The position numbers and the translations under genes are program-made. 64,000 nucleotides of DNA from a virus. Its lineage: Duplodnaviria > Caudoviricetes. Below the pieces are notes generated by a model, which was not told where the DNA came from, did no database searches, and worked only from the letters and a program-made list of their open reading frames with translations. Shown here one piece after another: positions 2,539 through 33,163 of this stretch. The stretch spans positions 24,871-88,870 of the IMG/VR virus record IMGVR_UViG_3300021431_000100; one strand, 5' to 3'. How positions within the stretch are numbered: the stretch's first letter is position 1; each line of letters opens with the position of its first letter.

Positions 2539-4597
2539 AGAGTAGTAGCTTAATGCCCCTGCAAAGTGTGGAAATTGCTGGAAAGTCCTAAAGTTTATTA
2601 TGCTACAACGTATTCTTAAACAGAACAGCGTGAACGCTTGAAAAATAATAAAATGAGCCGTCATGCTCGTAACGGAAACCACATGACGACGATGAAATGG
2701 ATAATCAGCAGCTAAAACCTCGTCAATGATTTTATTGAAGGGGGATGCTCAACGAGTAAGTAGGGAATACACCCTCGCTCACACTAGCTTAAATGTATTA
2801 AACACTTGGCGTTAAAGTGGCATTTAAGTGAAAGATATGCTCTAATCTTTATAGAAACACAAAGAAAAGGTGGAATGTATGTTATCCACCTAAATTATAA
2901 AATACTTGTTAAAATGCTATATTGTTTTGTTTTAAAATATTTTTTAAATTTTCAGTTGAAAGATTTTCTTTGTAAGAAATGCGGATGAGTGTTATATCAT
3001 GTTCTTTACATAATTTTTCTTTAATTATGTCGTTTTGATGATGTAAATCAAAATCAAACGTAGATATTTTGTTTTTCATTTTGATTTCGTGAAATGGTCC
3101 ATCATATTCAATGGCAAGATTTAAAACGGAGAAATATCCGTCAAGAGATAATTGGTCTTTGTTTTTTAACCAATCAAATTGTTTTTCAAATTCAGGTTCT
3201 TGATTTAAAATTTCTGCTATTTTTAATATACAATAAGTTCCTGTTTGAGACATTTGTGAGGAAAGATTGTTCAATATGTTTAATTCTTGATATACATTGT
3301 TTAAAGAATGGTCAAAATATTTAAGTATGGTTGGCAAACTGTATTTGGATTCATTAATAATAATGTTTTCACTAAGTACCCCATATTTTTTAACAATGGA
3401 ACTTAAATCTGTGAGAATATCATTTTTAGTAATTTTTTTGTGCATATTAGGTTGTAGACCCATTTCTTTTAACAATCCATTAAAACTACCAAAAAATCTA
3501 TCAACCGCACTTTGGGGTATGTTGGCTTCTTTAGACCGTTGGATTTTTGTGTTAAATTTGCCATATTTATGATAAAGCTCAAAAGAACGTTTTAGGATTG
3601 ATTCTTTAGTGAATTCGTTTTGATATGGTTTAATACCATATAATTTTACAAATTTTGCGAAAGAACCATAATGCTTTTTCATTTGAAATTGAGTAAGTTT
3701 TTTATCTGAGTGTGATAAAAAATATTGTAAAGTAAACTTATCTGTTGAATTATCGGATTGAAATAAAGTATATATTCTTTGTAGTTCAGATTTAAATAAT
3801 TGTTTAATTTCAATATTTTGTTGTTTTTCAAGAGGTTGTTCCCCGTTTATACCAATCATTTGTTTAATTTGGGTTAATTTCCCAACAGTTTTTTGAATAT
3901 GATATTGGCTACAATTTGCAACTTTTATTAATTCGTCCATTCGCAAATTACCATTAGTGTTAAAAAGATTTTTTGCAATTTGCAAAATGTCTTTTTTTGT
4001 TGGTTTGTTGAGCTTGGGACGGGTTGCTAGAGCGTCACATTTTACTTTATAAATATCATTCCAACAAGAAAGAGATTTTTTGAAATTTGTAAAAGTTCCA
4101 AATAATTCATAAAAATATTCTTTGTTGTAGTTATTCTTTGTTAAAAAGTCTTTTGCAGAAAAATCAATATGTGTTTGTTCCCAATATTCTTCTCCTTTTA
4201 GAATAGCTTCTTCTTTTGTAAAAGTATAGTTCCCTTTACGGTTAGCTAAATGAGCCATGCTAATTTTGTTTTTGGTTTTTTCTGAATGTGAGCGGTCAGT
4301 TTTGACAGGAGTAAATTTAAAAGTTTTTACGGTAAAATGGTTTGAGTTTTGTTGATTGTATTTTCTAACAAGAGTGAGAAACCCTTCTGTACTTGTAAGT
4401 TCTTTTGACGTATACTTACCTTTTTGAATGTATAAAGTTTTATTAATTGTTCCATATTGATTATAAATTTTATAAAAATCATCAAACAATTCTTGTTCAG
4501 AAAAAGTAGTAATTTTTTTCATATTTTGTTAACAACTCCTTAACAGTTATTATATAATATAATATATAACAAAACAAGTATTTTATAATTTTTTAAG
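2539..4597 (+). mobile_element. Group I intron (IA-like, with P7.1) in dnaE
   Basis: Exon ends in U; P1 GGGGU/GCCCC with U.G pair; P AATTGCTGGAAA 2573, Q AATCAGCAGC 2703, R TCAACGAGTA 2749, S AAGATATGCTCT 2832 with covarying P7; P8 CTTAAATG/CATTTAAG; terminal G at 4597; P10 AGCTTAAT pairs with exon 2 GTTAAGTT; splicing restores VGG-VKLDILKL. Confidence 0.92.
2909..4522 (-). CDS. Intron-encoded homing endonuclease, antisense to the intron (NUMOD3-like motif, repeated helical units, C-terminal Vsr/DUF559-like PD-(D/E)xK nuclease)
   Basis: HSEKTKNKIS motif; repeats of type TKE.IL...FG(S/T)F; C-terminal LDGYF...LAIEYDGPFH...KEKLCKEHDITLIRI; AGGAG RBS. Confidence 0.8.
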   Translation of the reverse strand: MKKITTFSEQELFDDFYKIYNQYGTINKTLYIQKGKYTSKELTSTEGFLTLVRKYNQQNSNHFTVKTFKFTPVKTDRSHSEKTKNKISMAHLANRKGNYTFTKEEAILKGEEYWEQTHIDFSAKDFLTKNNYNKEYFYELFGTFTNFKKSLSCWNDIYKVKCDALATRPKLNKPTKKDILQIAKNLFNTNGNLRMDELIKVANCSQYHIQKTVGKLTQIKQMIGINGEQPLEKQQNIEIKQLFKSELQRIYTLFQSDNSTDKFTLQYFLSHSDKKLTQFQMKKHYGSFAKFVKLYGIKPYQNEFTKESILKRSFELYHKYGKFNTKIQRSKEANIPQSAVDRFFGSFNGLLKEMGLQPNMHKKITKNDILTDLSSIVKKYGVLSENIIINESKYSLPTILKYFDHSLNNVYQELNILNNLSSQMSQTGTYCILKIAEILNQEPEFEKQFDWLKNKDQLSLDGYFSVLNLAIEYDGPFHEIKMKNKISTFDFDLHHQNDIIKEKLCKEHDITLIRISYKENLSTENLKNILKQNNIAF

Positions 4598-6352
4598 GTT
4601 AAGTTAGATATTCTTAAACTCTCAAATATGGAGTCGTTATACGACCAAATTGATTTATTAAAAAAAGAATATGATATAGATATGAAACTCGCAGACATTC
4701 CTCTTGACGACGAAAAGACTTGGGATTTGATTTGTTCTTGTGATACCACAGGCGTTTTTCAGATGGAAGGTGCTATAGGTAAAAATATCATTAAGCAAAT
4801 TCAACCTCATAACATAGAAGAATTGTCAGCGGTTAATGCGTTTGTGCGACCTGGTACTTCTGGTCTTGAAAACTATTGTGCTGCTAAAGAAGACCACTCT
4901 TTAATTCCGAAATATGACCCAAAAATTGATAAATGGTTAGCACCTACTTATGGAGCAATCGTTTATCAGGAGGAGATTCTTGGTATGATTTCCGAAATGA
5001 TGGGCGTGTCATTTGGTCGTGCAGATATTTATCGTCGTGCGTTAGAGAAGCCAAACAAGAAAGGTAACAAAGAGTTATTTGAAGATTTCTTAAACAATGG
5101 TGTATCTAATGCTGTTAAAAATGGTATTGATGAAGAAGGAGCAAAACGCATCCAAAAAGCAATAATTGATAATGCAGGTTATCTCTTTAATAAGAGCCAT
5201 TCGATTGCCTACTCCATAATAAGTTATTGGTGTGCTTGGGTTAAAGCCAATTATCCATTAATTTTTTATCTTTCTTTGTTTAATACTGAGCCTGTATCAA
5301 AATTACAGGATTGTATGCAAGAAGCTATTAAGCATGGAATTAAAATTGAGCCACCTGATATATCTAAATCCAAATTTGAATCCACTATTGAGGATAAAGA
5401 GAATATGGTTATTCGTATGGGTTTGAATTGTGTAAAGGGTATAGGTGACAAAGCTGTTGAGGAATTAACACCACAGCAACCATTTAGCGATTTCGCTGAT
5501 TACTTTGAACGTGCAGGTAAGGGTTCGGGTAAGGGTGTTGTAGAAGCAGGAATTAAAATTGGTGCATTTGAAAGTATGCCGATTAAAATTCATAAGCAGT
5601 TAATTCCCGATAATTGTCCGTTGAATATAAAAGACAACGGTGAAGAAGTTCAAGTATATTTAAATAGAGAGCAACAATTGATTTGGTACAATTCTTATCT
5701 TGATAATAAGAAGAATAAAGCTGTACCGAATTATGCAATCCCTTACGATTTGATTAAGGGCGAATATTTTGATAACTTTGATAGTGACGAATTAATTCAA
5801 GAAAAGGACGGGACTTTAATTATTCCCGAAACCATGCTTGATAAGTTTGGGTTCAATGAAACGCAAGCAGAACAATATAAAACTCGTAAAAAACCAAAGG
5901 GCGTTTTAAAAACTGCAGTAGAAGAATTTAAAATGACCCCTATAGAAAAGGGATTTAAGAGTGCTTACGAAGATATTGTTGCTTGTAAAGAAAGCAAATT
6001 ACAACAGTATTTGCAGAATATGGAAGATTTTGAATTGTCGTTTATTCCACACCCTCTTGAAGCACAAAACAAAATGATTGTTTTAATTAGCGAAGCTAAA
6101 GACGGTGCAACGGTAAAATCAGCAGGAATTATTGTTGATATAATTACCCGACAAACCAAAACGGGCAAGCCTTTTTATAATGTAATTTTGCAAACTCCTA
6201 GAGAGAAACAAAGACTTACTGTATGGAGTAATGTTTTTAATAATTATAGAGATATTATGACAGTAAATCATATTATAAAAATTACAGGTAAGATAGGTTT
6301 TGGTGGTATTACCGTAGACGGAATTTGGGACGCTAAAGCTAATTATAATTAA
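4598..6352 (+). CDS. dnaE: DNA polymerase III alpha subunit, exon 2
   Basis: VKLDIL, TTGVFQME, VRPG, VYQEE, GYLFNKSHS, PPDISKS and GLNCVKGIG motifs plus C-terminal OB fold; in frame 30 nt upstream of ATG 4628. Confidence 0.93.
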   Translation, partial: VKLDILKLSNMESLYDQIDLLKKEYDIDMKLADIPLDDEKTWDLICSCDTTGVFQMEGAIGKNIIKQIQPHNIEELSAVNAFVRPGTSGLENYCAAKEDHSLIPKYDPKIDKWLAPTYGAIVYQEEILGMISEMMGVSFGRADIYRRALEKPNKKGNKELFEDFLNNGVSNAVKNGIDEEGAKRIQKAIIDNAGYLFNKSHSIAYSIISYWCAWVKANYPLIFYLSLFNTEPVSKLQDCMQEAIKHGIKIEPPDISKSKFESTIEDKENMVIRMGLNCVKGIGDKAVEELTPQQPFSDFADYFERAGKGSGKGVVEAGIKIGAFESMPIKIHKQLIPDNCPLNIKDNGEEVQVYLNREQQLIWYNSYLDNKKNKAVPNYAIPYDLIKGEYFDNFDSDELIQEKDGTLIIPETMLDKFGFNETQAEQYKTRKKPKGVLKTAVEEFKMTPIEKGFKSAYEDIVACKESKLQQYLQNMEDFELSFIPHPLEAQNKMIVLISEAKDGATVKSAGIIVDIITRQTKTGKPFYNVILQTPREKQRLTVWSNVFNNYRDIMTVNHIIKITGKIGFGGITVDGIWDAKANYN

Positions 6353-20632: not shown

Positions 20633-20638
20633 AATTTT

Positions 20639-20670
20639 CCTCACTGTTTTTAAACAGTGAGGATTTTTTT
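20639..20670 (+). terminator. Intrinsic terminator insulating the cas operon
   Basis: CCTCACTGTTT / AAACAGTGAGG with T-run. Confidence 0.8.
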
Positions 20671-20690: not shown

Positions 20691-20719
20691 TTGACATTTT
20701 ATTGAGTTTGTGATTTAAT
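20691..20719 (+). promoter_or_regulatory. Sigma-A-like promoter of the cas operon
   Basis: TTGACA-N17-TTTAAT with TG extension and upstream A-tract; RBS GAAAGGA. Confidence 0.65.
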
Positions 20720-20776: not shown

Positions 20777-21979
20777 ATGGCAAAAAAGAAAAATACTAGT
20801 AACACCACAACCGCTACTACTGCACCTGTTAAGGAATTGACCAACTTTTCTTTGGAACGCAGTTTGTTTGTTTCAAGTGCAGGAAAGCTCAGTGCTGTTA
20901 AGTGGGAAAACCGACATGGAATTCAGGCAGATGTTCTTATCGACAAATTTCAGGGTGGTGCAAATGCTTGTAAAACCCACTATATGAAAGACGAGGCTAC
21001 TATTTTAGCGGAAGCTTGTGACAACAATACTCAGCAAGACCTTGATATATGTCACCTTCCTGTAGGATTTGATACTTTGTGCTTGGAATTTTCTGTGGAG
21101 GCACAGCCATTTAACAAGAAGCGAATTTCCGCTTGTAATCTTATGTCAGTAAGAAAGCGTTTGGCTTCCCTTGTTACTGAGTATGTAACTAATTGGGGAT
21201 TTAAGGACATTGCAGTGCCTTATGTAAACAACGTGGTTAATGGTTGTAGTTTGTGGAGAAATCAGAACAGTGCTGACGAGATTATAACTGAAATCGAGAT
21301 TGGCAATGGTAAGCAGTTTGTTTTCAATTCTTTTAACTACGACCAGAACAAGTTTACAACAAACGACCCTCAGATTAACGAGATTGCAGATATGATTGCC
21401 GACACCCTTTGTGGGAAGCAGAGATTGTTCAAGATGACTGTCCGTATTTATGCTCGCCTTGGTGACAGACATATTGTATATCCTTCTCAAAACCTTATTA
21501 TGGACACTAAAGGCAAGTTCCTTTATGAGTTGAATTCCGACCACCTTGCAGGACTGCATGACACTAAGATTGGTGCCGCGTTGCGTCGTATTGATACTTG
21601 GTATCCAGATTATATTAATAACAATAAAGAACCTATTCCTGTATACGCTTATGGTCAGGATAGAACTGAGAACATTGTTCATAGATATTCTTTTGACAGC
21701 AATATTTATGGATATATTAAGACTTGGTTGCTTGAAGAACAGGATATTCCTGACGAAGCAAAGCATTTTGTTATGAGTTGTTTCGTTTTTGGTGGAGTAT
21801 TTAACCCAAAAAATAACAATGACAAGAACGACGCTAACAATAATAACAATGCTGACGCTAATGGCGATAAGACTGAAACTAACGATAGTGAAGTTAAGGC
21901 TGAGGCTGAGGAAACCGTTAAGACTGACGTTAACAAAAATGAGGCTGACGACGCTAACGCTACTTTGGCTATGTTTTGA
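20777..21979 (+). CDS. cas7f: Type I-F Cascade backbone Cas7f (Csy3)
   Basis: LP..DTL, VNG..LWRN, VYPSQ.L, KIGAALRRIDTWYP and PIPV..YG motifs characteristic of Csy3. Confidence 0.9.
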   Translation: MAKKKNTSNTTTATTAPVKELTNFSLERSLFVSSAGKLSAVKWENRHGIQADVLIDKFQGGANACKTHYMKDEATILAEACDNNTQQDLDICHLPVGFDTLCLEFSVEAQPFNKKRISACNLMSVRKRLASLVTEYVTNWGFKDIAVPYVNNVVNGCSLWRNQNSADEIITEIEIGNGKQFVFNSFNYDQNKFTTNDPQINEIADMIADTLCGKQRLFKMTVRIYARLGDRHIVYPSQNLIMDTKGKFLYELNSDHLAGLHDTKIGAALRRIDTWYPDYINNNKEPIPVYAYGQDRTENIVHRYSFDSNIYGYIKTWLLEEQDIPDEAKHFVMSCFVFGGVFNPKNNNDKNDANNNNNADANGDKTETNDSEVKAEAEETVKTDVNKNEADDANATLAMF

Positions 21980-21992
21980 GGAGGTTTGAATA

Positions 21993-22535
21993 ATGTTTAG
22001 TCAGGAGATTGTGTTGGATGAACCGAGCACTCACATGTTGAGTAATGTAATGAAAAAACTGCATGGTCTGTTTAGTCAGGAGGTAAATTGTGGGAAATTC
22101 GCTGTGTCTTTCCCACAGCATTCCTTCAATAACAAGAAAGAACTCCAACTTGGCAATACAATTAGCGTTTTGTGCAACGAAGAAAAAACTTTGGCTGATT
22201 TAAATTTGTTACAGGAGTTTTCTGAATGGAAACTTCTTACCGTTAAGCCTAACATTACAAGTGTTGATAAATATTGTCTGTTTAAACGGGCACACCTTCA
22301 TTCTTACAAGGCTCATGTAACAAGAAAAATGAAGCGTGGAACACTGACTAATACAATTGATTTGTTTCAAGCACAAGAAAAGAAAAAGGAAGAATTTTCA
22401 AAACATGCGTGTTTGAAAATGTCAAGTAAATCTACAAGACGTTATATGAAGCTGTATATTACAAAAAGCAAAAACGTTGAAAATGCCAAGTTCAATTCTT
22501 ATGGATTGGTTACAGAAAGGATTAGTAATGGCTAA
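21993..22535 (+). CDS. cas6f: Type I-F crRNA endoribonuclease Cas6f (Csy4)
   Basis: KLHGL (catalytic His), AVSFP, LG..I, SSKST and FNSYGL motifs. Confidence 0.82.
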   Translation: MFSQEIVLDEPSTHMLSNVMKKLHGLFSQEVNCGKFAVSFPQHSFNNKKELQLGNTISVLCNEEKTLADLNLLQEFSEWKLLTVKPNITSVDKYCLFKRAHLHSYKAHVTRKMKRGTLTNTIDLFQAQEKKKEEFSKHACLKMSSKSTRRYMKLYITKSKNVENAKFNSYGLVTERISNG

Positions 22536-23649
22536 GAAGAAGAAAGAACCAAAAGATTTTAAAACTGAAACTGAACATGCGATTAACAAGTTGGTTAAGG
22601 CTAATACTTTTAAAAAGATGTTGGCAAATGACTGTTTTGACTCTACAATGTTTGCAACCCACGTTTCAAAGTTTTTGCATACTAAAATTAGCTTAAATAA
22701 CGTTGCCAATTTGTTTGATGATTCGGTTGCAGATAATCGTGATTATTTATGTACTGCAAATTCGGGTTATAGTGACCCTGATATTATTTTTAATGGAGCA
22801 ACCGTTAAAGCTATGCTTGCGACATTTTTATCATGTGAAATTACATATAAAGATGCACAAGGAGTTGAGAAGATTGTTACCATATTGCAGTTATTAAAAG
22901 ACGATTACAAATATTTACGTGACGCTATAACATATTTGATTGACGAGAATTATCTTTTTGTTGTGGACGATTATGACGATTTTCGTAATAAGGCGTTGAG
23001 TTGTGTTAAAACTCCTATGCCTATAAATTCTAGCCCATTGAACAATCAGATTTATTTCCCTGTTGCTGAAAATGACTATGTTTTGCTTGACCCTATTCCT
23101 TCTACTGTACTTTTTAAAGAGGTGCATAATAAGTTAAAAAATGTAAAAAATGTTTCAAAAATTCGTTATGCTATGGGTAGCGATAAGTGGAGAAACACAA
23201 CCACGAGCAAGATTGTTACCAAAACAGGCGATTTCGTCACGAGAGATATGTCTGCTAATTATATGTTCCTTACTTTGCCCCCACAAAGCTTGTTGAAAAA
23301 GAATAAGCGTAAGGTAATTTATCCAAAATTTAATGTGGAAAATATGCAAGGTGTACAGAACGGAATGCTTATTGATGACACTTTGCTTGATACAATTTGT
23401 AAAGAAGGTCTGAGAGGTCGGGCTACTGCCAAGGCTGAACGTGCAGAACGTGACGACAGTGTTAAGAGAAACTTTTTGGAAAAATATGGTTGGAGTGTAA
23501 TCCCCAACGGATATGAAATTCATCATATTATCCCAATTTCTCAAGGTGGAGCAGATGCAGTAGAAAACATGATTTTGTTAACAAAAGCACAACATGCAAT
23601 TATTACTCGTTGCCATTCTGCATATTTTGGGTGGCACATGAGGGTGTAA
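22528..23649 (+). CDS. cas8f: Cas8f (Csy1)-like large subunit with C-terminal HNH nuclease
   Basis: ATHVSKF.H and QIYFPV...Y.LL.P Csy1 motifs; C-terminal EIHHIIPISQGG...ENMILL...QH; ATG 22528 after AGAAAGG, overlapping the cas6f stop. Confidence 0.82.
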   Translation: MAKKKKEPKDFKTETEHAINKLVKANTFKKMLANDCFDSTMFATHVSKFLHTKISLNNVANLFDDSVADNRDYLCTANSGYSDPDIIFNGATVKAMLATFLSCEITYKDAQGVEKIVTILQLLKDDYKYLRDAITYLIDENYLFVVDDYDDFRNKALSCVKTPMPINSSPLNNQIYFPVAENDYVLLDPIPSTVLFKEVHNKLKNVKNVSKIRYAMGSDKWRNTTTSKIVTKTGDFVTRDMSANYMFLTLPPQSLLKKNKRKVIYPKFNVENMQGVQNGMLIDDTLLDTICKEGLRGRATAKAERAERDDSVKRNFLEKYGWSVIPNGYEIHHIIPISQGGADAVENMILLTKAQHAIITRCHSAYFGWHMRV

Positions 23650-23661
23650 AAGGAGGCAACT

Positions 23662-24480
23662 ATGGGGAAGTATGTTTTGATTGACGGAGTAGAAATTTTT
23701 GGTGCGAATGCATTTCATCGCATTTGTGTAGGTACTCCAGCTATGACAGCGTTAATGGGCTTTGTAGAAAAGTTGAAAAATGAACTGAGGGAAGAATATA
23801 ATAATCCTGCCATTAATATAGAAGCGGGATTTATTATTAATGATTATTGGCTTGACGCAGTTAAGGACTCAAAATATAAGTCGCTTCACATGAACGCAAA
23901 GACTGTAGAATATTATCGTGGTGACAGTAACCATTCACAAAAAAAGATTTTGAGTTGTCAGTCAGTGTCTAATCAGGCGTATATGGATTTAAACATGTCG
24001 TTTCTTTTAAAAATTGAAAATTTGCAAATTACCAATGACGTAACATGTTTTATTAAAAATATAGTTGAAACTTTGCGTGTTGCGGGTGGTAAAATTACAG
24101 AAGTTGACGACGTGTTTGAAATTGAAGACCTTCAAGACGTAGAATGGGGTGGACGTTTTATTACCTGCGAACAACATGCTTTGAATGAAGCAGAGGGTGA
24201 CAATATGCTTGACAAGATGATTAAAGCTTGTCAGGATGATTATAGACTGAAAGTAATTCCTTATGGATATAGACAGGAAACCCCGTTTCGTTTAAATGTT
24301 AAAAATGTACGAGAAGAAAATGTACCACATTGTTTTGTTGAATCAATTTATACATTGATTAAATTTAAACATATTTCTGAAATTGAAAGCATTGATGAGC
24401 TTTGGTGGCATTATGAATATCGTGAAGGTAGCAACAATGATGGTATTTTCATTTGTACACAAGAAAAATCAGTTGAATAA
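23662..24480 (+). CDS. cas5f: Type I-F Cas5f (Csy2)
   Basis: N-terminal I.GANA....GTPAMTALMGF..KL motif, LRVAGG.I and position in the operon. Confidence 0.8.
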   Translation: MGKYVLIDGVEIFGANAFHRICVGTPAMTALMGFVEKLKNELREEYNNPAINIEAGFIINDYWLDAVKDSKYKSLHMNAKTVEYYRGDSNHSQKKILSCQSVSNQAYMDLNMSFLLKIENLQITNDVTCFIKNIVETLRVAGGKITEVDDVFEIEDLQDVEWGGRFITCEQHALNEAEGDNMLDKMIKACQDDYRLKVIPYGYRQETPFRLNVKNVREENVPHCFVESIYTLIKFKHISEIESIDELWWHYEYREGSNNDGIFICTQEKSVE

Positions 24481-24496
24481 ATTGCTAAAAAAAATA

Positions 24497-24526
24497 TTGA
24501 CAAACACTCTTTAATTAACATATAAT
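24497..24526 (+). promoter_or_regulatory. Sigma-A-like promoter upstream of the SSB gene
   Basis: TTGACA-N18-TATAAT. Confidence 0.6.
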
Positions 24527-24662
24527 ATTTTATGTCAGGAATATTAAACAATTGCAGTGACAATCAATATTCGCTGACATAAAATATTATAGCTACATTG
24601 ACCGAGTTGCCACACATGCACTACAGCTAATATAGCATATCAAGCAAACTAGGTACAATGTA
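24521..24662 (+). ncRNA. Candidate structured RNA / leader between cas5f and the SSB gene
   Basis: Perfect 18-bp inverted repeat 24521-24538/24574-24591 with inner stems; second stem TACATTG-ACC / GGT-A-CAATGTA 24594-24662. Confidence 0.35.
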
Positions 24663-24688
24663 ATACAGTTAATGGAGGTATTTTATTT

Positions 24689-32320: not shown

Positions 32321-33163
32321 TTATCGAACAAATACTACAGCAGTACGGTCAAGGAAATGAGTACGCTCATTTTCGGCAAGAATTCGCAGTGCGTCCTCAT
32401 TTGAAACCATAGGACTTGCGTTTACTACTGTATTCTGCTGAAAACCAATAGCCCTTACAACGAGTGGGTTAGAACCTGCCCTTGGGCAGTTTGCAATATC
32501 CTTGGAAAAACCACACATGCCATTCTGTACTACGGTATTATGGTCAATATTTCTCAGCCCATAAAATGGTTTGTTGTTAGCGTCCACAATAGTAGGAGCC
32601 ATTGTCGGCTCTAAACCTAAACCACTGCAGTCTACAATAAGACCTGTATAATTTCCATTTGCACTCATACGAGCGTTATTGCGTTCAACAGGAGTAACAC
32701 TTGGGGAAGAATAAGTATCTGTAGTACAAATATTCTCCTTTGATACGTCAGGAATAATTGCAGAAGCAAGGGAGTTGGTAGTGCCAAACAGTGGCATCTC
32801 TACCGTAACAGTATAGGTTTCATCGGCAGGATTCCATTCTTCCTTTACAATTTTTGCGTTCTTAACAACGCCCTCTACACGAGCATTGACAACTTCACTA
32901 CCGAATGCAAGGTCTTCGGTAGAAGAACTAGCCTTTACCCATACGCCCTTTGCTTCTTCAAGAAGCTGTCTGTAAGCGTTCAATACAGCTGCTCTGCGAG
33001 CATGAGCTTTCTTTGCTCCAATCTTGGTATCAGTTGCCTTTGGTAAACCGATTTCTGTAACAGTAATACAGTTATCCTCAAAAGATGCTTCCGACATTGC
33101 AAATGCACTTGTGCTGACCATTAACGTCAAAATCATGGTCATAATCATAAAAATCTTCTTCAT
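32321..33163 (-). CDS. Exported LPP20/FlgT-N-like protein
   Basis: Sec signal peptide (…SAFA); ARRAAVLNAYRQLLE..GV.V motif. Confidence 0.55.
   Translation of the reverse strand: MKKIFMIMTMILTLMVSTSAFAMSEASFEDNCITVTEIGLPKATDTKIGAKKAHARRAAVLNAYRQLLEEAKGVWVKASSSTEDLAFGSEVVNARVEGVVKNAKIVKEEWNPADETYTVTVEMPLFGTTNSLASAIIPDVSKENICTTDTYSSPSVTPVERNNARMSANGNYTGLIVDCSGLGLEPTMAPTIVDANNKPFYGLRNIDHNTVVQNGMCGFSKDIANCPRAGSNPLVVRAIGFQQNTVVNASPMVSNEDALRILAENERTHFLDRTAVVFVR

Follow-up and report, generated by a model that had tools for sequence, protein, structure and literature searches.

A diverged type I-F HNH-Cascade encoded by a jumbo phage from the sheep rumen

The window analysed here, a stretch of 64,000 nucleotides, forms part of the 88.9-kb virus record IMGVR_UViG_3300021431_000100, which is catalogued in IMG/VR. 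Its plus strand carries a complete four-gene effector set in the order cas7f–cas6f–cas8f::HNH–cas5f, and all four genes match type I-F families in Pfam and PADLOC profile searches. The features of the locus, with positions counted from the first nucleotide of the window, are as follows:

20638–20663, plus strand: terminator-like hairpin (11-bp stem, then a T-run) that ends the upstream gene and marks the 5' boundary of the operon
20777–21979, plus strand: cas7f (Csy3), 400 amino acids; Pfam Cas_Csy3 E 7e-65 over residues 25–342, PADLOC Cas7f E 5e-65
21993–22535, plus strand: cas6f (Csy4), crRNA endoribonuclease, 180 amino acids; Pfam Cas_Csy4 E 8e-17
22528–23649, plus strand: cas8f::HNH, 373 amino acids; identified by Pfam, PADLOC, phmmer and structure comparison, and homologous end to end to the Cas8-HNH of PDB 8w1p, 8ydb and 9sjn
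23284–23649, plus strand: linker and HNH nuclease domain of the same protein (residues 253–373), delimited by the structural model, VIA and the phmmer alignment
23662–24480, plus strand: cas5f (Csy2), 272 amino acids; Pfam Cas_Csy2 E 4e-24, PADLOC Cas5f E 9e-29
24481–24688, no strand: 208-bp gap between cas5f and a gp32-like ssb gene, free of repeats, with a perfect sigma-70-type promoter (12/12) at 24497–24526

A TTGACA sequence is present downstream of the hairpin (20691–20696), where the promoter scan called no consensus -10 element. At the other end of the operon, the 208-bp gap holds the promoter and an inverted repeat only, and gave no match in an Rfam search. The Cas7f protein is 31–36% identical to Cas7f from other HNH loci and ends in an Asn/Asp/Glu-rich tail (residues 343–400, nt 21803–21979) that is lacking in its bacterial relatives (~312–336 amino acids). 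In Cas6f, H24 and S145/S147/T148 are invariant across the seven family members aligned and have as their counterparts His29 and Ser148 of the Cas6 protein of Selenomonas sp. RGIG9219 (hereafter Ss; PMC11459484); by this alignment, the catalytic residues of Cas6f are kept.

At least eight independent assemblies contain the operon in intact form. In several strains that differ by 0.5–1.5% at the DNA level all four ORFs are likewise intact and the changes are mostly synonymous. For cas6f, 13 synonymous and no non-synonymous variants were counted (summed from four comparisons that overlap in their sites and cannot be taken as independent), and the strain differences in cas6f and cas8f are mostly synonymous (7 synonymous against 3 non-synonymous, for example). 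The operon genes are under purifying selection.

The cas8f::HNH ORF runs from the ATG at 22528 to the TAA at 23649, the encoded protein ending in ...NGYEIHHIIPISQGGADAVENMILLTKAQHAIITRCHSAYFGWHMRV. Gene callers used for public assemblies place the start 45 nt further upstream, giving a protein of 388 amino acids, but the 373-residue form is preferred on account of an AAGGA Shine–Dalgarno sequence 7 nt 5' of the ATG at 22528 and the overlap with the cas6f stop codon. A Cas8f N-terminal and central part (residues 1 to ~252) is followed by the linker and HNH domain (~253–373). Pfam detects Cas_Csy1 (PF09611; E 7e-15, residues 41–229), the match breaking off at position 191 of the 378-position profile, and HNH (E 9e-6, residues 329–351), whilst the PADLOC Cas8f profile scores E 4e-16. 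Searching PDB chains titled 'Cas8f fusion with HNH' with phmmer gave E 9e-47 and ~36% identity over residues 36–370. An earlier, sequence-only reading of this DNA had described a 373-residue Cas8f-like protein ending in a complete H-N-H motif; the ORF and the motif (residues 330–356, nt 23515–23595) are as it described them, and the range 23400–23649 that it singled out corresponds to residues 291–373, taking in the last part of the linker and the HNH domain.

That reading had also proposed that the domain folds as an HNH with an intact active site, and both proposals are borne out. The AlphaFold model has pLDDT values of 76–93 in the linker and HNH domain; the N-terminal two thirds are poorly modelled (mean pLDDT 59.6). 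When the modelled linker and HNH domain were aligned with solved Cas8-HNH chains using VIA, Z scores of 17–18.7 and rmsd values of 2.1–2.6 Å were obtained over 116–118 residues, with 42–43% identity to Ss residues 221–342, and the best 15 Foldseek matches of the model are all Cas8-HNH chains. Alignment of the Cas8f model with the Csy1 N-domain gave a VIA Z score of 5.5, in the part where the model is of low confidence. The predicted catalytic residues H333 (23524–23526), N347 (23566–23568) and H356 (23593–23595) align with Ss H304, N318 and H327 (phmmer alignment; PMC11459484) and do not vary among the nine family members aligned; sensor-helix residues T360, H363 and W369 are also conserved (PMC11459484, PMC11480323). 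As modelled, then, the C-terminal domain has the HNH (beta-beta-alpha-metal) fold with its catalytic residues in place, and on sequence grounds the phage protein is predicted to be an active nuclease.

The type I-F HNH-Cascade (Cas8-HNH) of Selenomonas was described by Altae-Tran et al. 2023 (PMC10910872), and Cas8-HNH Cascade structures followed by cryo-EM in 2024–26 (PDB 8w1p, 8ydb, 8z0k, 9sjn; PMC11459484, PMC11480323, PMC12848945). The phage locus is a new, deeply diverged member of this known group, so that the 'new orthologue' of the sequence-only reading stands as regards the member itself, whereas the kind was already known from the 2023 paper and the 2024 structures. The Selenomonas complex makes a crRNA-guided, HNH-dependent cut in both strands just past the PAM-distal end (PMC10910872, PMC11459484, PMC12848945). 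A defined cut, as had been foreseen for the phage protein, is thus shown experimentally for its homologue; its position, however, is fixed by the fully paired 32-nt R-loop's PAM-distal end and not, as had been supposed, by distance from the PAM. [quoted passage not shown]

The Cas8-HNH family is a rare one: clustering of 1.84 billion representative proteins at 50% identity puts its members in just six clusters, and among 185,579 species genomes full-length Cas8-HNH was found in two Selenomonas ruminantium genomes only. The phage Cas8f::HNH is 30–36% identical to each other family member. Its gene order recurs in eight other HNH loci and, across the genes covered, on three truncated contigs; one further locus is arranged differently. 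The phage locus is the only one of the 13 HNH loci without an adjoining CRISPR array. In 11 of the other 12 the array directly follows cas5f and in the remaining one it lies upstream of cas7f, with 28-nt repeats and 32-nt spacers throughout the bacterial loci.

The operon is carried by a sheep-rumen jumbo phage with a genome of 333 kb or more: both ends of the record map at an identical offset to a 333,100-bp contig (ENA ERZ12302815, NODE_18), and the phage genes include those for DNA polymerase, a helicase, PhoH, RecA and tail-fibre domains. No cas1, cas2 or cas3 was found in the 88.9-kb record, in keeping with the earlier proposal that the HNH domain takes the place of Cas3, and the precomputed Pfam families assigned to genes at record positions 140,182–273,000 include none of the three. 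In all, 133 of the 333 kb of the phage genome were inspected. IMG/VR relatives of the phage (fragments picked by PhoH similarity) lack both Cas7f and the repeat.

The 88.9-kb record yielded no array, mini-array or lone repeat when searched for exact 18-mers and for 21/28 matches spaced 40–110 apart, by a Hamming scan with the bacterial repeat and with a covariance model. The one covariance-model match in the window (32420–32475, 17.2 bits) requires a 29-nt loop insertion, lies inside an ORF and was taken as chance. On the longer contig of the same phage, however, two CRISPR arrays of 12 and 7 repeats lie 59 and 63 kb downstream of the operon. Their leaders, which carry a promoter, agree at 200 positions of an alignment of 232 columns; the repeat is 35 nt long and starts GTCTAA, and the spacers measure 26–31 nt. 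The 3' 27 nt of the repeat comprise an I-F-style hairpin and an 8-nt handle, UUUAAAAC, that fit a covariance model trained on 10 bacterial I-F-HNH repeats: phage repeats are the top 11 matches in the array locus, in the correct strand and register, each single match being weak (12.5–15 bits; E 3.5 in 173 kb). Searches of IMG/VR and of 401 Negativicutes genomes did not recover the repeat, Rfam leaves it unclassified, and the arrays have no match among GenBank phages. ORFs of 647, 787 and 1404 amino acids, each close to the operon or the arrays, were considered as hidden effectors and rejected, as they give no Cas or RuvC signal and resemble common phage or structural proteins.

Three of the spacers match Selenomonadaceae genomes (25/26, 26/28 and 26/29), with targets in prophage and other accessory DNA; one protospacer sits in an HK97-type prophage capsid gene. 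All three protospacers have a 5'-TTTV flank (TTTA, TTTG and TTTC). A further match (24/28, with a GAGA flank) was treated as unreliable, and several BLAST matches of the arrays in Selenomonadaceae genomes were discarded as falling on the repeat or on a terminator-like last 'spacer'. In the opposite direction, none of 296 I-F-type spacers from bacterial Cas8-HNH loci and IMG/VR contigs matches the phage, a result that is neutral with regard to any use of host crRNAs.

Taken together, these results lead us to propose, with a probability of roughly 0.78, that the operon specifies a working type I-F HNH-Cascade, independent of Cas3 and carried by a jumbo phage of Selenomonadaceae, for which the arrays 59 and 63 kb downstream are the likeliest source of guides. 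In such a system, Cas6f would cut the pre-crRNA at the base of the 5-bp hairpin and remain bound, and Cas5f, six or so copies of Cas7f and Cas8f would assemble on the crRNA. Cas8f would then recognise the PAM and open the target, and the HNH domain, tethered by its linker near the PAM-distal end, would cut the DNA at a defined place without calling in Cas3, with H333 predicted to act as general base and N347 and H356 to hold the metal. The inspected parts of the phage contain no adaptation genes. The guides would most likely come from the two remote arrays; it is likely that these arrays feed the HNH-Cascade. As their spacers match prophage and accessory DNA of Selenomonadaceae, the system would destroy competing phages and elements in a shared host.

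Which PAM would be read is suggested by both the protein and the arrays. Asp83 of SsCas8 reads the C of the 5'-CN PAM (PMC12848945). In the phmmer alignment, the Ss PAM residues Asp83, Lys85 and Arg88 correspond to Gly90, Thr92 and Ala95 of the phage protein, the wedge residue Asn193 corresponds to Lys220, and the PAM-reading loop varies across the family (nine-sequence alignment). Replacement of the PAM-reading Asp by Gly fits a different PAM, and the candidate array targets point to a T-rich one. It counts against the link between arrays and Cascade that, with spacers of 26–31 nt, a 32-nt guide would end in 1–6 repeat-derived bases that are unmatched in the three targets. If the remote arrays do supply guides of ~27 nt, the R-loop checkpoint would have to differ from that of the Selenomonas enzyme: the phage Cascade might be licensed by a shorter duplex or might act mainly as a non-target-strand nickase. 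The full picture of a Cascade loaded from the remote arrays, with a T-rich (TTN/TTTV) PAM and a guide of ~27 nt plus repeat-derived bases, used by a jumbo phage against the prophages of its own host, is put forward tentatively, at a little under even odds.

The remote arrays might instead serve another effector, such as a type V nuclease, whilst an active Cascade loads host I-F or I-F-HNH crRNAs during infection, so that the host's spacer library would be turned on rival elements with no need for Cas3. The TTTV flanks, the 26–31-nt spacers and the 35-nt (35–36) repeat starting GTCTAA do resemble type V-A, no cas gene adjoins the arrays and a second effector could lie outside the 133 of 333 kb inspected. 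Moreover, strong conservation of the bacterial I-F-HNH repeat extends over hosts with Cas proteins no more than 30–55% identical, so the phage Cas6f, though diverged, might be able to accept it as well. The hairpin of the phage repeat, however, lies 8 nt from the spacer, a class 1 (Cas6) layout, whereas in type V repeats, to our knowledge, it lies within 0–2 nt; the Cas12a UCUACU...GUAGAU motif is absent, and no large RuvC-like ORF is present in the 133 kb. Loss of the PAM-reading Asp from Cas8 would also be odd if the host spacers used had been selected for a CN/CC PAM. Complementary partial CRISPR systems of jumbo phages and their hosts have been proposed (PMC13037316), but here we consider such an arrangement unlikely.

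It is far less probable still that the operon is a counter-defence decoy, its Cascade subunits soaking up or mis-assembling host I-F crRNAs (a biomimicry anti-CRISPR) with HNH cutting irrelevant. The lack of an adjoining array and of adaptation genes would suit a decoy, and an array-less phage Cas9 has been proposed to hijack host crRNAs (Altae-Tran et al., PMC10910872), but against a decoy stand the purifying selection and the conservation of all three HNH catalytic residues, of those in the sensor helix and of the active site of Cas6f, and the two arrays, driven by promoters and carrying spacers that match other elements, point to offensive use of guides. That the operon is a defunct bacterial remnant, recently captured and shorn of its array on transfer, is scarcely credible: its being alone among 13 loci in lacking an adjoining array is outweighed by ORFs intact across strains with mostly synonymous changes, by a GC content (33%) equal to that of the phage and by 30–36% identity to all relatives, a long, old branch that speaks against recent capture.

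If the phage-borne HNH-Cascade works as proposed, its interest is twofold. HNH-Cascade is in development as a precise class 1 genome editor, with one orthologue characterised so far; a ~36%-identical copy whose PAM loop differs, and which possibly uses shorter guides and a T-rich PAM, would extend the range of sites that can be targeted and would help to single out the indispensable parts of the activation checkpoint. It would also mean that the arsenal of jumbo phages against competing prophages includes a point cutter that needs no Cas3.

A phage-borne type I-F system is carried by Vibrio phage ICP1, and phage CRISPR-Cas systems known to us use either Cas3-dependent type I or class 2 effectors. 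No other phage-borne Cas8-HNH was found in IMG/VR (where the search returned isolated HNH matches only), among GenBank phages or in the published literature searched, and the present one would be the first such example found. The CRISPR-Cas systems of huge and jumbo phages that lack adaptation modules (Al-Shayeb et al. 2020, 2022, as cited in PMC13037316) are likewise phage-encoded and without cas1 and cas2, with small arrays and spacers against competing elements in the same host.

Canonical type I-F1 Csy of Pseudomonas aeruginosa (PDB 7jzx, 6ne0) has homologous Cas5f, Cas6f, Cas7f and Cas8f N-terminal domain, and its repeat, like that of the phage, combines a pentaloop hairpin of 5 bp with an 8-nt handle. 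In the phage protein, however, the Cas2-3-recruiting helical bundle at the Cas8f C-terminus has given way to the HNH domain, a placement that the sequence-only reading had recognised and that PMC12848945 gives for the homologue. Neither cas1 nor cas2-3 was found in the 88.9-kb record, and point cleavage would be expected rather than processive degradation. The type I-E Cas5-HNH Cascade of Candidatus Cloacimonetes (PMC10910872) similarly has an HNH on a Cascade subunit in place of Cas3 and cuts PAM-distally, but there the HNH is on Cas5, was acquired independently of Cas8-HNH and is associated with collateral ssDNA cleavage that is not seen for Cas8-HNH (PMC10910872).

The closest counterpart is the Selenomonas HNH-Cascade, which shares with the phage its gene order, Cas8 domain layout, catalytic H/N/H residues and linker and HNH fold; it has no cas3, and none was found in the inspected 133 kb of the phage. 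Against this stand several differences. The phage system is encoded by a jumbo phage rather than a bacterium; its Cas8-HNH, at ~36% identity, exceeds its counterpart by 30 residues and has two insertions and an added basic stretch at the N-terminus, and its Cas7f bears a 58-residue acidic tail. Finally, it has no adjoining array but candidate arrays 59–63 kb away, with a 35-nt repeat, 26–31-nt spacers and TTTV flanks in place of 28 nt, 32 nt and CN.

The cas8f::HNH gene lies in an operon of four cas genes, laid out in the window as follows (E-values are those of the gene assignments).

20638-20663, terminator-like hairpin 5' of the cas operon
20777-21979, cas7f (E 7e-65)
21993-22535, cas6f (E 8e-17)
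22528-23649, + strand, cas8f::HNH, ATG to stop, 373 aa
23662-24480, cas5f (E 4e-24)
24497-24526, perfect sigma-70-type promoter 3' of the operon, driving a gp32-like ssb gene

Public gene calls start cas8f::HNH 45 nt further upstream, giving a protein of 388 aa; the ATG at 22528 has a better ribosome-binding site than the public start and overlaps the cas6f stop codon. Cas6f retains its catalytic residues, a histidine (H24) and a Ser/Thr cluster (S145/S147/T148). Cas7f ends in a 58-aa Asn/Asp/Glu-rich tail (residues 343-400, window 21803-21979) that is absent from all bacterial relatives, is probably disordered and might act as a DNA mimic or have a regulatory role.

The sequence-only reading had placed an HNH nuclease with an intact active site at the C-terminus of this Cas8f (range 23400-23649, residues 291-373; motif at nt 23515-23595, residues 330-356), and this proved correct. 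Pfam identifies Cas_Csy1 at residues 41-229 (E 7e-15) and HNH at residues 329-351 (E 9e-6), PADLOC assigns the protein as Cas8f, and a Protein Data Bank sequence search matches residues 36-370 end to end with chains annotated 'Cas8f fusion with HNH' (E 9e-47), which are those of the Selenomonas sp. type I-F HNH-Cascade (8w1p, 8ydb, 9sjn and others). The beta-beta-alpha-metal site of the Selenomonas protein (SsCas8) comprises His304, Asn318 and His327 (PMC11459484, PMC11480323, PMC12848945). These catalytic residues align with H333, N347 and H356 of the window protein, which are invariant in all nine aligned family members, as are T360, H363 and W369 of the C-terminal 'sensor' helix.

The AlphaFold model made with that alignment is poor overall (mean pLDDT 59.6), with residues from about 261 to 370 confident. 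The best 15 Foldseek matches of the model in the PDB are all Cas8-HNH chains, and VIA-align places window residues 253-370 on Ss residues 221-342 (Z 17-18.7, rmsd 2.1-2.6 Å, 42-43% identity); colicin and pyocin HNH DNases rank next (Z about 3-4), and the Csy1 N-domain is the match for the N-terminal part (Z 5.5). Since the model superposes on Cas8-HNH chains, the domain is predicted to fold as an HNH, and the refuting outcome named with the sequence-only reading, a domain lacking this fold, is not borne out. The nearest stand-alone relatives of the linker and HNH (residues 264-370) are ~240-aa proteins with 42-52% identity (L034:2593-6977, from Anaerovibrio lipolyticus, and a second locus, L121), whose genes in Selenomonadaceae come immediately after two genes for dynamin-family GTPases; the HNH module may derive from these proteins, or they may belong to a separate defence operon.

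The accompanying proposal, that the HNH replaces Cas3 and cuts at a fixed distance from the PAM, is the mechanism already established for the Cas8-HNH family and would by analogy hold for the window protein. In SsCascade, both strands are cut a few bases past the PAM-distal end of a 32-nt protospacer, the PAM is 5'-CN with Asp83 as its main reader, and target-strand cleavage needs full PAM-distal pairing (PMC11459484, PMC11480323, PMC12848945); with PAM-distal mismatches the target strand is uncut and the non-target strand is only nicked (PMC12848945).

Full-length Cas8-HNH proteins are rare: among 1.84 billion representative proteins, scanned exhaustively with HMMER, there are only six clusters, the only full-length copies among 185,579 species genomes are in two Selenomonas ruminantium genomes, and a metagenome scan added nine loci. 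No other phage-borne Cas8-HNH was found in GenBank phages, IMG/VR or the literature searched. The window protein forms a long branch, shares 30-36% identity with each of the other members, and has a longer basic N-terminus and insertions around residues 107-150 and 233-245. The SsCas8 PAM contacts Asp83, Lys85 and Arg88 and the wedge residue Asn193 (PMC11480323, PMC12848945) align with Gly90, Thr92, Ala95 and Lys220, respectively. The PAM-contacting loop is variable across the family, and a change of PAM relative to CN is probable for the phage Cascade. One metagenomic locus (L118:4107-9534) carries, before cas6f-cas8f::HNH-cas5f and an array, an additional cas5 and an additional cas8-like gene of weak similarity; cas7f was not detected there at E 1e-5.

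Genes from both ends of the 88,870-bp IMG/VR record that contains the window lie on a single 333,100-bp ENA contig from a sheep-rumen metagenome; the shared offset (147,969) shows record and contig to be collinear. The record encodes DNA polymerase, a homing endonuclease, a helicase, PhoH, RecA, SbcCD, RuvC, ThyX and tail-fibre domains; neither Cas1 nor Cas3 was found in it. Two contigs longer than 200 kb are on record with an identical Cas7f protein. DNA divergence among strain variants of the phage is 0.5-1.5%, and at least eight assemblies keep all four cas ORFs intact. In cas6f no non-synonymous differences occur, and in cas8f synonymous ones predominate (for example, seven against three non-synonymous). 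The genes are maintained by selection. One strain comparison of cas7f, counted over the whole gene, gave 15 non-synonymous and six synonymous differences.

Elsewhere in this jumbo phage, the DNA polymerase gene (window 2909-6352) is interrupted by an opposite-strand homing/HNH endonuclease ORF (PHROG matches). Just upstream of the record, where it breaks off, lie seven complete tandem paralogous genes (L239:668-9982; 432-446 aa) without Pfam matches, flanked by a partial gene before and the record's 404-aa gene after. A cluster of 13 tRNA genes occupies L216:8089-13086, and a few kb past the window end lies a possible tmRNA (L005:17160-17400), a region of structured RNA whose T-arm resembles that of a tRNA.

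A CRISPR array adjoins the cas genes in all 12 other full-length loci, directly 3' of cas5f in 11 and upstream of cas7f in one (L112), with a 28-nt repeat, GT(G/T)TA-CCGCC-GNNTA-GGYGG-YTTAGAAN, and a period of 60 nt. There is no array at the phage cas locus and nothing repeat-like in the whole 88.9-kb record. Walking the 333-kb contig in 10-kb steps revealed two arrays outside the window.

L216:14921-15653, + strand, array 1, 12 repeats, 58.9 kb downstream of cas5f
L216:19456-19879, + strand, array 2, seven repeats, 63.4 kb downstream of cas5f

The arrays share a leader with a TTGACA promoter (200 identical positions in a 232-column alignment) and the last repeats of both are degenerate; the two features together assign transcription to the + strand. 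The arrays have no cas gene next to them; their neighbours are the tRNA genes and genes for a dCMP deaminase, a CCA-adding enzyme and an amidase. The 35-nt repeat reads GTCTAAAAGTTT-CAACT-GAATA-AGTTG-TTTAAAAC and the spacers are of 26-31 nt, most often 27; their GC content is 41%, compared with 33% in the phage. In its 3' part the repeat is laid out like an I-F repeat: the 5-bp stem ends in G, the pentaloop is GNNUA, and the 8-nt handle is identical to the bacterial UUUAGAAG at six of eight positions. With a covariance model made from ten bacterial I-F-HNH repeats only, phage repeats are the 11 best matches in the 22-kb array locus, in the right strand and register (12.5-15 bits); a single match has E 3.5 for the 346 kb searched, not significant alone, and for a site chosen beforehand we estimate a chance of ~1e-4. 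Only one site in 173 kb of phage DNA outscores them (window 32420-32475, 17.2 bits, E 0.35, reading GUUUACUACU...AGUGGGUUAGAAC), and with a 29-nt loop insertion and a position inside a minus-strand ORF it is probably a chance match. Single I-F-type repeats are present in many other low-GC IMG/VR viral contigs, and a viral mini-array (L105:4640-4760, IMG/VR 2854132136_000003) comprises a promoter, an I-F-HNH-type repeat, one 32-nt spacer and a closing degenerate repeat ending in a T-run.

A search of the arrays in 262 Selenomonadaceae genomes matched three spacers over their full length.

25/26 (G437) and 24/26 (G429), unknown ORF beside a GtrB-like glycosyltransferase, 5' flank TTTA
26/28 (G471), beside a type I-like methylase/specificity gene, 5' flank TTTC
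26/29 (G254), inside an HK97-type major capsid gene adjoining a prohead protease, 5' flank TTTG

The per-genome E-values are 1.6e-4, 2.2e-5 and 9.7e-4, and taken singly only the second would hold after correcting for 262 genomes. Jointly, the matches are convincing because their limits are exactly those of the spacers and a TTTV flank accompanies all three. The arrays are aimed at prophages and accessory DNA, and the matches make Selenomonadaceae, the family holding the bacterial Cas8-HNH loci, the probable host family.

That the phage HNH-Cascade uses these two remote arrays we put at roughly 55-60%. No cas module other than this operon was found in the 133 kb inspected of the 333-kb genome, the hairpin-and-handle geometry of the repeat is class 1 and nearest to the family's own repeat, Cas6f is intact, and the Asp that reads the CN PAM is lost from the window protein. 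Against this, compared with all relatives the repeat has 7 extra nt and the spacers lack about 5, so that a 32-nt guide would end in repeat bases unmatched by targets, the kind of PAM-distal mismatch that limits SsCascade to nicking the non-target strand (PMC12848945). The arrays may also belong to a type V-A-like effector encoded in the remaining 200 kb or so of the genome, given that TTTV flanks, 26-31-nt spacers and a 35-nt repeat starting GTCTAA are type V-A-like traits. The large unknown ORFs near the operon and near the arrays give no Cas or RuvC signal.

Whether or not the remote arrays serve the phage HNH-Cascade, the Cas8f-HNH system itself is of a known kind: the Selenomonas sp. type I-F HNH-Cascade was first reported by Altae-Tran et al. 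2023 (PMC10910872) and its structure has been solved by three groups (PMC11459484, PMC11480323, PMC12848945). The phage locus is therefore a new and very divergent member rather than a new kind, and what it adds to the family is carriage by a phage, arrays that are detached and atypical, and a probable change of PAM.
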